Positions 3,687 through 5,097 of a DNA stretch of 5,349 nt are shown piece by piece. The notes under the pieces were generated by a model. That model made no database searches and was not told the origin of the DNA. It saw only the letters and a program-made list of their open reading frames with translations. The stretch's first letter is position 1; every line of letters starts with the position of its first letter. Location: the IMG/VR virus record IMGVR_UViG_2585427776_000008, one strand, 5' to 3'. The DNA is from a virus (taxonomy: Duplodnaviria > Heunggongvirae > Uroviricota > Caudoviricetes). The translations under genes were made by a program, and so were the position numbers.

Positions 3687-3862
3687 GAAAATAGCACAGA
3701 GTGTAGCATCAGAGCAGGGCTATCGGGAATATATGTCTAAATCTGGTAATATCTGGTTTTGACGCAAAGCGGACAACCACGCTGGCTCTACCCTGCGCCA
3801 TGAAAATGTCAATTCACATCTGAACTAATGCTCTTTAATCTAGTAACGTCTAAAATACCTAA

Positions 3863-3878
3863 GGAAGGTGCGAACAAG
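3863..3878 (+). repeat. IS5 left terminal inverted repeat
   Basis: GGAAGGTGCGAACAAG; the flanking 4 bp outside is CTAA (3859-3862). Confidence 0.9.
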
Positions 3879-3930
3879 TTCCTGATATGAGATCATCATA
3901 TTCATCCGGAGCGCATCCCAGAGGGACATC

Positions 3931-4911
3931 ATGAGCCATCAACTCACCTTCGCCGATAGTGAATTCAGCACTAAGCGCCGTCAGACCCGAAAAGAGATTT
4001 TCCTCTCCCGCATGGAGCAGATTCTGCCATGGCAAAACATGGTGGAAGTCATCGAGCCGTTTTATCCCAAGGCGGGCAATGGCCGACGGCCCTATCCGCT
4101 GGAGACCATGCTGCGTATTCACTGCATGCAGCATTGGTACAACCTGAGCGACGGTGCCATGGAAGATGCCCTGTACGAAATCGCCTCCATGCGCCTGTTT
4201 GCCCGATTATCCCTGGATAGCGCCCTGCCGGATCGCACCACCATCATGAATTTCCGCCACCTGCTCGAGCAGCATCAACTGGCCCGTCAATTGTTCAAGA
4301 CCATCAATCGCTGGCTGGCCGAAGCAGGCGTCATGATGACTCAAGGCACCTTGGTCGATGCCACCATCATTGAGGCACCCAGCTCGACCAAGAACAAAGA
4401 GCAGCAACGCGATCCGGAGATGCATCAGACCAAGAAAGGCAATCAGTGGCACTTTGGCATGAAGGCCCACATTGGTGTCGATGCCAAGAGTGGCCTGACC
4501 CACAGCCTAGTCACCACCGCGGCCAACGAGCATGACCTCAATCAGCTGGGTAATCTGCTTCATGGAGAGGAGCAATTTGTCTCAGCCGATGCCGGCTACC
4601 AAGGAGCGCCACAGCGCGAGGAGCTGGCCGAGGTGGATGTGGACTGGCTGATCGCCGAGCGTCCCGGCAAGGTAAAAACCTTGAAGCAGCATCCGCGCAA
4701 GAACAAAACGGCCATCAACATCGAATACATGAAAGCCAGCATCCGTGCCAGGGTGGAGCACCCGTTTCGCATCATCAAGCGGCAGTTCGGCTTCGTGAAA
4801 GCCAGATACAAGGGGCTGCTGAAAAACGATAACCAACTGGCGATGTTATTCACCCTGGCCAACCTGTTTCGGGTGGACCAAATGATACGTCAGTGGGAGA
4901 GATCTCAGTAA
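3931..4911 (+). CDS. insH: IS5 transposase InsH (326 aa)
   Basis: Translation [40 protein letters not shown]...QWERSQ is near-identical to the IS5 transposase as recalled, with the ATG 68 bp inside the left inverted repeat. Confidence 0.95.
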
Positions 4912-5042
4912 AAACCGGAAATAACGCCAGAAATGGTGGAAAAAATAGCCTAAATAGGCTGATTCGATGTGTTTGCGGGAAAAAAATCGGCCCAGATCCG
5001 AGAAATTTTAATCAGCGAGTCAGCTTGGGAAGAAATGACCTG

Positions 5043-5058
5043 CTTATTCGCACCTTCC
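5043..5058 (+). repeat. IS5 right terminal inverted repeat
   Basis: CTTATTCGCACCTTCC (reverse complement GGAAGGTGCGAATAAG); the flanking 4 bp outside is TTAA (5059-5062). Confidence 0.9.
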
Positions 5059-5097
5059 TTAAGTGACAACCCCGCTGCAACGCCCCCTGTTATCAAT

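Follow-up and report, generated by a model that had tools for sequence, protein, structure and literature searches.

Deletions that arise by recombination between direct copies of an insertion sequence (IS), and that leave one copy behind within a hybrid target duplication, have been described for IS1, IS5, IS150 and IS26 in Escherichia coli and other bacteria, and IS-mediated decay is a familiar fate of cryptic prophages. Direct repeats of 1.2 kb that lie 4 kb apart recombine readily, and within the IS5 family simple insertions far outnumber replicative intramolecular events, as established from IS903. ISKpn26 is known from Klebsiella plasmids and from disruptions of mgrB and acrR; under the isoform rule of ISfinder, a copy is assigned to a reference element when its nucleotide identity to that element is above ~95%. 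A published ISKpn26 insertion is flanked by the 4-bp direct repeat CTAG (PMC8023600). Duplications that do not match are an accepted sign that IS copies have recombined, and deletions adjacent to pre-existing ISs, which were common in the long-term evolution experiment (IS150), have also been described for the IS5-family element IS903 (PMC11708052).

Here we describe a prophage locus in which a complete ISKpn26 is bordered by two different 4-bp sequences, CTAA and TTAA. The window, that is, the whole stretch of DNA analysed (5,349 bp), is the reverse complement of the entire draft contig JOQP01000052.1 (5,349 bp) of assembly GCA_000714145.1, as identified by an exact-protein look-up; a literature search for the assembly accession found no paper mentioning it. 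Comparison with related prophages places the two flanks at two separate insertion sites 3.7 kb apart, and we favour recombination between two IS copies as the origin of the junction, giving about even weight to this reading and to its alternatives taken together.

Results

Content of the window and identity of the insertion sequence

The window derives from a defective lambdoid prophage that is integrated next to potC and has Qin-like dicF and dicB. To the left of the IS it retains a partial Q antiterminator gene, rusA, a DUF968 gene, hok/sok and queH, the last intact gene on this side; to the right follow DicF and then the start of dicB (Table 1). A gap of 40 bp separates DicF from the right end of the IS, and DicF is without its native upstream promoter region. 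An earlier note on this DNA, made from the sequence alone, had named the flanking genes correctly; annotation, Rfam and translation give queH (minus strand), DicF and the dicB start. Its comparison with K-12 Qin is apt for dicF and dicB, which are Qin-like, but not for the prophage as a whole, which is integrated at potC and is not K-12 Qin itself.

Two features of the left-hand region may be recorded here. The queH gene belongs to the nin-like region of the prophage, and its exact protein is extremely widespread: public assemblies list it in 25,425 index blocks. Between queH and the DUF968 gene lies a complete hok/sok type I toxin–antitoxin locus (2607-2932, minus strand).

Comparisons were made with the complete E. 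coli genomes of strains DLI.5a (L001), TOE17 (L004) and AST46 (L005), which share the left junction and are called the site-A relatives below, and with SCPM-O-B-9504 (L002), SCPM-O-B-7615 (L089) and F95 (L003), in which the site on the right is occupied. Site A lies beside queH, in the last codons of the DUF977 gene, and site B lies in the spacer between ydfC and dicF.

Table 1. Features of the window and of the reconstructed junctions. Positions refer to the window unless a relative is named.
Feature	Position	Strand	Evidence or detail
Hok ORF	within 2607-2819	-	
sok RNA	2757-2932	-	Rfam, 120.5 bits
queH, epoxyqueuosine reductase QueH, 221 aa	3000-3665	-	RefSeq on identical DLI.5a sequence; Pfam PF02677; ORF list
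DUF977 gene 3'-end remnant (...RYFRRY and stop)	3840-3862	-	Translation of the remnant and of the reconstructed empty site
CTAA, left target-duplication copy of site A (queH/DUF977)	3859-3862		Comparison with DLI.5a, TOE17 and AST46; identical left flank
ISKpn26 (IS5 family), complete, 1196 bp	3863-5058	+	Inverted repeats; identity to the DLI.5a copy
Terminal inverted repeats of ISKpn26, 16 bp	3863-3878 (GGAAGGTGCGAACAAG) and 5043-5058 (CTTATTCGCACCTTCC)		Found mechanically
DDE transposase gene, intact, 326 aa	3931-4911	+	ORF; Pfam PF01609 (DDE_Tnp_1) and PF05598
IS5-type patch in ISKpn26	4341-4386		Sites 4341, 4350, 4356 and 4386 (IS positions 479, 488, 494 and 524)
TTAA, right target-duplication copy of site B (ydfC/dicF spacer)	5059-5062		SCPM-O-B-9504, SCPM-O-B-7615 and F95; same right flank
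DicF small RNA	5099-5150	+	Rfam RF00039, 76.7 bits against a gathering score of 48, full length 1-52
dicB start (METLLPNV...)	5325-5349	+	Translation; RefSeq dicB at the homologous DLI.5a position; cut by the contig end
Site-B TTAA copies in SCPM-O-B-9504	L002 12007-12010 and 13207-13210		
Site-B TTAA copies in F95	L003 6000-6003 and 7199-7202		
Right junction of site A (reconstruction)			IS end followed by CTAACATTTCCTTG; also written …CGCACCTTCC followed by CTAACATTTCCTTGATAAAATGCC
Left junction of site B (reconstruction)			CCATACGCTTAA followed by IS start; also written …GACCATACGCTTAA followed by GGAAGGTGCG

The element had been called IS5 in the earlier note, a designation that is correct for the family but not for the element, which is ISKpn26. 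It differs from the RefSeq-annotated ISKpn26 of DLI.5a at 4 of 1196 bp (99.67% identity), well within the ~95% rule, whereas alignment with the classical IS5 copy of F95 gives 96 differences (91.98% identity, 1196 versus 1195 bp), which places the window copy outside classical IS5 (K-12 IS5, 1195 bp). Its terminal repeats have the form GGAAGGTGCGAA(C/T)AAG and enclose a single DDE transposase gene, which points towards dicF/dicB and whose protein is identical, on protein comparison, to the ISKpn26 transposase of DLI.5a. The one property of an ISKpn26 insertion that this copy lacks is the 4-bp direct duplication of a YTAR target; the missing duplication reflects a later rearrangement and leaves the family assignment unaffected.

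The junctions read ...AAAATAC-CTAA (3859-3862), then GGAAGGTGCGAACAAG... through the IS (3863-5058) to ...CTTATTCGCACCTTCC, then TTAA (5059-5062)-GTGACAAC. Direct reading of the sequence thus confirms the unequal flanks reported earlier for 3859-5062; both fit YTAR, and they differ at one of four bases. A misplacement of the IS ends by one base, which the earlier note had raised as a possible source of the mismatch, is ruled out because the same ends yield perfect 4-bp duplications at five other, separate insertion sites (eight loci, with either ISKpn26 or IS5): CTAA in DLI.5a/TOE17/AST46 and in L088, and TTAA in SCPM-O-B-9504/SCPM-O-B-7615, in F95 and in L076. Among the copies examined, that of the window is the only one with differing flanks.

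Comparison with related prophages

Positions 1-5062 of the window correspond to 8602-13663 of the DLI.5a locus with 8 mismatches (three in the flank, four in the IS and one in TTAA), and positions 5058-5349 to DLI.5a 17398-17689 with 100% identity. The sole structural difference is that the window is without DLI.5a 13660-17398 (3,739 bp); in relatives of this type, dicF lies 3,739 bp further to the right, beside a single unoccupied TTAA.

The left junction is present in all three site-A relatives, where the IS lies between queH and the DUF977 gene within a perfect CTAA/CTAA duplication. DUF977 is shortened by seven codons as a result, and RefSeq labels the DLI.5a gene ‘missing C-terminus’; the remnant in the window was severed from the gene body by this site-A insertion. 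The corresponding empty site, with a single CTAA, occurs at 100% identity over 400 bp in 30 genomes among the matches listed, with 630 records at an identity of at least 99% and 864 genomes at a query coverage of at least 80%. The relatives' prophage copies are already decaying, with insertions of IS421 or IS1 and truncated genes.

At site B, by comparison, DLI.5a, TOE17 and AST46 are unoccupied and carry a single TTAA (…CATACGC-TTAA-GTGACAACCCC…), and about 4,100 genomes have an empty ydfC-dicF spacer in which TTAA occurs once. Occupied forms occur in SCPM-O-B-9504 and SCPM-O-B-7615, with ISKpn26, and in F95, with classical IS5. In each, the IS has the same orientation as in the window and is bordered by a perfect TTAA/TTAA duplication. 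These site-B genomes are without a queH-type site A.

Because the two sites are separate, each with its own perfect duplication, and because the flanks are never contiguous, the window combines the left half of an insertion at site A with the right half of one at site B. A search of 5,426 complete E. coli genomes gave no record with both junctions, and a synthetic join of the two window flanks is contiguous in 0 of the 5,426. The earlier note had proposed a deletion or rearrangement in place of a simple insertion, and the spacing of 3,739 bp in the nearest relatives supports it. The observation that it had named as contrary evidence, a relative with contiguous flanks and a single YTAR site, was found in none of these genomes.

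According to the DLI.5a annotation, the lost interval comprises the DUF977 gene body, an O-like helix-turn-helix replication gene, a YdaT-family gene, a cro-like regulator, a divergent repressor, ydfA (DUF1391), ydfB, ydfC and a spacer of ~300 bp. In a lambdoid prophage, this interval amounts to the immunity switch, the early promoters and the replication functions. Proteins encoded in it include WP_000095671, WP_000693888, WP_001072337 and WP_000233320. The gene content of the DLI.5a interval matches the earlier prediction that an immunity and ydfABC region upstream of dicF had been lost. The full order (dicB, ydfC/A, repressor, cro, YdaT, replication genes, DUF977 and QueH) recurs in each of ten distinct QueH neighbourhoods drawn from other public assemblies.

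Repeated use of one target upstream of dicF

ISKpn26 and classical IS5 have independently used one and the same TTAA, which precedes DicF (in F95, the kil gene) by 37 bp. DicF and DicB, or Kil, are toxic cell-division inhibitors. This TTAA could be a hot spot for the elements, or insertions may be selected there for cutting dicF/dicB or kil off from the early promoter. A more elaborate proposal, which we regard as speculative and quite doubtful, is that the site is recurrently selected, with IS5-family insertions uncoupling toxic DicF/DicB or Kil from the early promoter; the deletion would then be a further step of domestication, in which immunity and replication were removed and dicF/dicB were kept under weak IS-derived transcription. 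A sigma-70 promoter scan of the + strand near the IS right end, outward to dicF, gave no candidate, with hits at or below the level of shuffled sequence.

A candidate for a fourth site-B insertion (H7) was rejected, as it proved to be an ISKpn26 between ydaF and sieB of a Rac-like prophage. An ISKpn26 in this setting is found at L088 5001-6204 (NZ_CM132250.1), within a perfect CTAA/CTAA duplication; it is another IS5-family insertion that precedes kilR in the early-left region of a cryptic prophage.

An IS5-type tract in the surviving copy

The four differences between the window IS and the DLI.5a copy are of a particular kind. At 96 of 100 sites that are diagnostic of ISKpn26 versus IS5, the window IS is of ISKpn26 type; the other four are of IS5 type and are consecutive. 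All four changes are synonymous, the tract that they define is 46-272 bp long, and the 151 bp around it are 100% identical to K-12 IS5. The identical full-length IS allele is absent from the 5,426 complete E. coli genomes. The patch recurs, with its boundaries unchanged, in the ISKpn26 that adjoins blaCTX-M-32 and ISEcp1 on the closed plasmid pYLPD7a (L076). Comparable clusters of variants at IS positions 698/743 and 800-833 are unconverted. A purely computational origin of the patch, by bubble popping towards multi-copy IS5 during assembly, is unlikely in view of the closed-plasmid copy and of the unconverted clusters. The patch instead looks like a real, circulating conversion tract, produced by gene conversion between two related ISs. 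Because it distinguishes the surviving copy from that of DLI.5a, the former is not simply an unchanged site-A copy.

Discussion

Origin of the junction

We consider it about an even call that the window records a real IS-mediated deletion, by homologous recombination between two copies, with the junction as read in the draft contig. Specifically, ISKpn26 first inserted into the last DUF977 codons beside queH, duplicating CTAA, a step that comparison shows and whose product survives in DLI.5a, TOE17 and AST46. A second copy would then have entered, in the same orientation, the TTAA 37 bp upstream of dicF, 3.7 kb away. Finally, the direct copies would have recombined, with excision of one copy and of the 3,739-bp interval. 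The predicted product is one hybrid ISKpn26 between the CTAA of site A and the TTAA of site B. The prophage would thereby have lost its immunity switch, its early promoters and its replication functions, and dicF/dicB, without their native promoter and repressor, would have come to lie directly downstream of the IS.

Several observations favour this route. Each junction corresponds to a separate true insertion with its own perfect duplication, at site A and at site B, and the copies are in direct orientation, with the transposase on the + strand at both sites relative to the same prophage gene order. Recombination is favoured because simple insertions at site B have been observed twice independently in the required orientation, because simple insertion is much commoner than replicative intramolecular transposition in the IS5 family, and because direct repeats of 1.2 kb at a distance of 4 kb are unstable. 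It is further favoured because the copy that remains differs from the site-A copy, as would be expected with a non-identical partner. The patch favours recombination only mildly, since an unrelated gene-conversion event could also explain it. Against recombination, all three site-A relatives have an empty site B, and the 5,426 complete genomes, among which the site-A relatives number only three, include no two-copy intermediate with an IS at A as well as at B.

The same junction would be reached in a single step by a transposase-mediated adjacent deletion, an alternative that is possible though on the whole unlikely. The site-A copy would transpose intramolecularly and replicatively into the site-B TTAA, and the interval would be lost as a circle. 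The product of such an event has the IS in place, CTAA on its left and one TTAA of the new target on its right, and this junction is identical to that of recombination; sequence alone does not separate the two. One event suffices in place of two, and no second copy is assumed, in keeping with nearest relatives that have the IS at site A only and an empty site B. The loss also begins precisely at the right end of the IS and ends precisely at a proven IS5-family YTAR target, and deletions of this type are documented beside pre-existing copies of IS150 and IS903 (PMC11708052). Retention of the IS, a start at its end and a far endpoint at a consensus target are, however, common to both models. In addition, adjacent deletion predicts an unchanged site-A copy, so the four-site IS5-type patch would call for an extra conversion event. 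Although the mechanism is shown for IS903, we know of no demonstration for IS5 or ISKpn26 themselves, and the natural simple insertions at site B in SCPM-O-B-9504 and F95 make the two-step route plausible.

An assembly artefact is less easily reconciled with the data, and we regard it as improbable. Here real copies at A and B would have been collapsed to one, with the interval placed on a separate contig, and the deletion would be absent or confined to part of the culture. That the window is a whole draft contig, and that its arrangement occurs in 0 of 5,426 complete genomes, would fit such an error. Short reads are normally unable to bridge a multi-copy IS, and the site-A relatives have up to 11 matches to the IS query per chromosome (DLI.5a). 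Contig quality also appears modest. The only flank differences from the three site-A relatives (1471 T>G, 1484 C>G and 2522 A>C) are confined to the window, being absent from 12 related loci, and each makes a G-run or C-run longer, two of them creating the apparent DUF968 changes A228P and N232T; this pattern suggests sequencing or consensus errors. The window ends inside the Q antiterminator gene on one side and 25 nt into dicB on the other. Q gene and dicB modules are commonly multi-copy per genome, and the contig ends probably fall at repeats shared with other prophages. Yet a contig that appears to stop at repeats runs through the IS, from which we infer that the ISKpn26-specific parts were probably single-copy in the assembly graph. 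A single IS copy cannot occupy both sites, and a collapse is therefore less likely. Moreover, the artefact would still need a site-B insertion, and all three site-A relatives have that site empty.

A simple insertion at one site with a later point mutation in one copy of the duplication, for which the difference at just one of four bases might speak, is refuted, since the flanks are never contiguous in the 5,426 genomes, lie 3,739 bp apart in near-identical prophages and each continue into different DNA at an intact empty site of their own.

Implications for the prophage and for annotation

Recombination between two copies, our preferred reading, is a standard IS-mediated event with the standard hybrid-duplication signature and implies no new biology; this particular deletion is absent from every complete genome searched and is thus a new instance of that event. 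Slightly unusual are only the repeated use of the TTAA before dicF by two IS5-family elements and the IS5 tract within an ISKpn26. A prophage without repressor, early promoters and replication genes cannot be induced, and dicF and dicB are left without the region that normally controls them. The unequal flanks are a correct indication of a structural change, and the value of the observation lies mainly in annotation and quality control: where an IS with an unmatched duplication is met in a short draft contig, the arrangement should be checked against reads before a deletion is called.

Comparison with known systems

The locus resembles known deletions by recombination between direct IS repeats in that one copy is left, the differing 4-bp flanks come from separate true sites, the interval between them is lost and the orientation is the same at both sites. 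It departs from them in that the two-copy intermediate at this locus is deduced from the individual insertions at A and B. With the adjacent deletions known for IS903 and IS150 (PMC11708052) it shares a start at the IS end, an end at a consensus target and the want of a matched duplication; unlike in those cases, the IS that remains differs in sequence from the copy already present in the relatives. As an ISKpn26, the window copy has the length of 1196 bp, the inverted repeats, the identical 326-aa transposase and the YTAR target of the known element, from which it differs in its tract of 46-272 bp from classical IS5 and in its unmatched duplication. Finally, in the dicA-dicC/ydfABC-dicF-dicB region of K-12 Qin, as here, DicF RNA is followed by dicB, and the order repressor, ydfA, ydfB, ydfC is preserved in the relatives of the window; in contrast to K-12 Qin, the window belongs to a different prophage, beside potC, in which the repressor, promoter and ydfABC part has been replaced by the IS.
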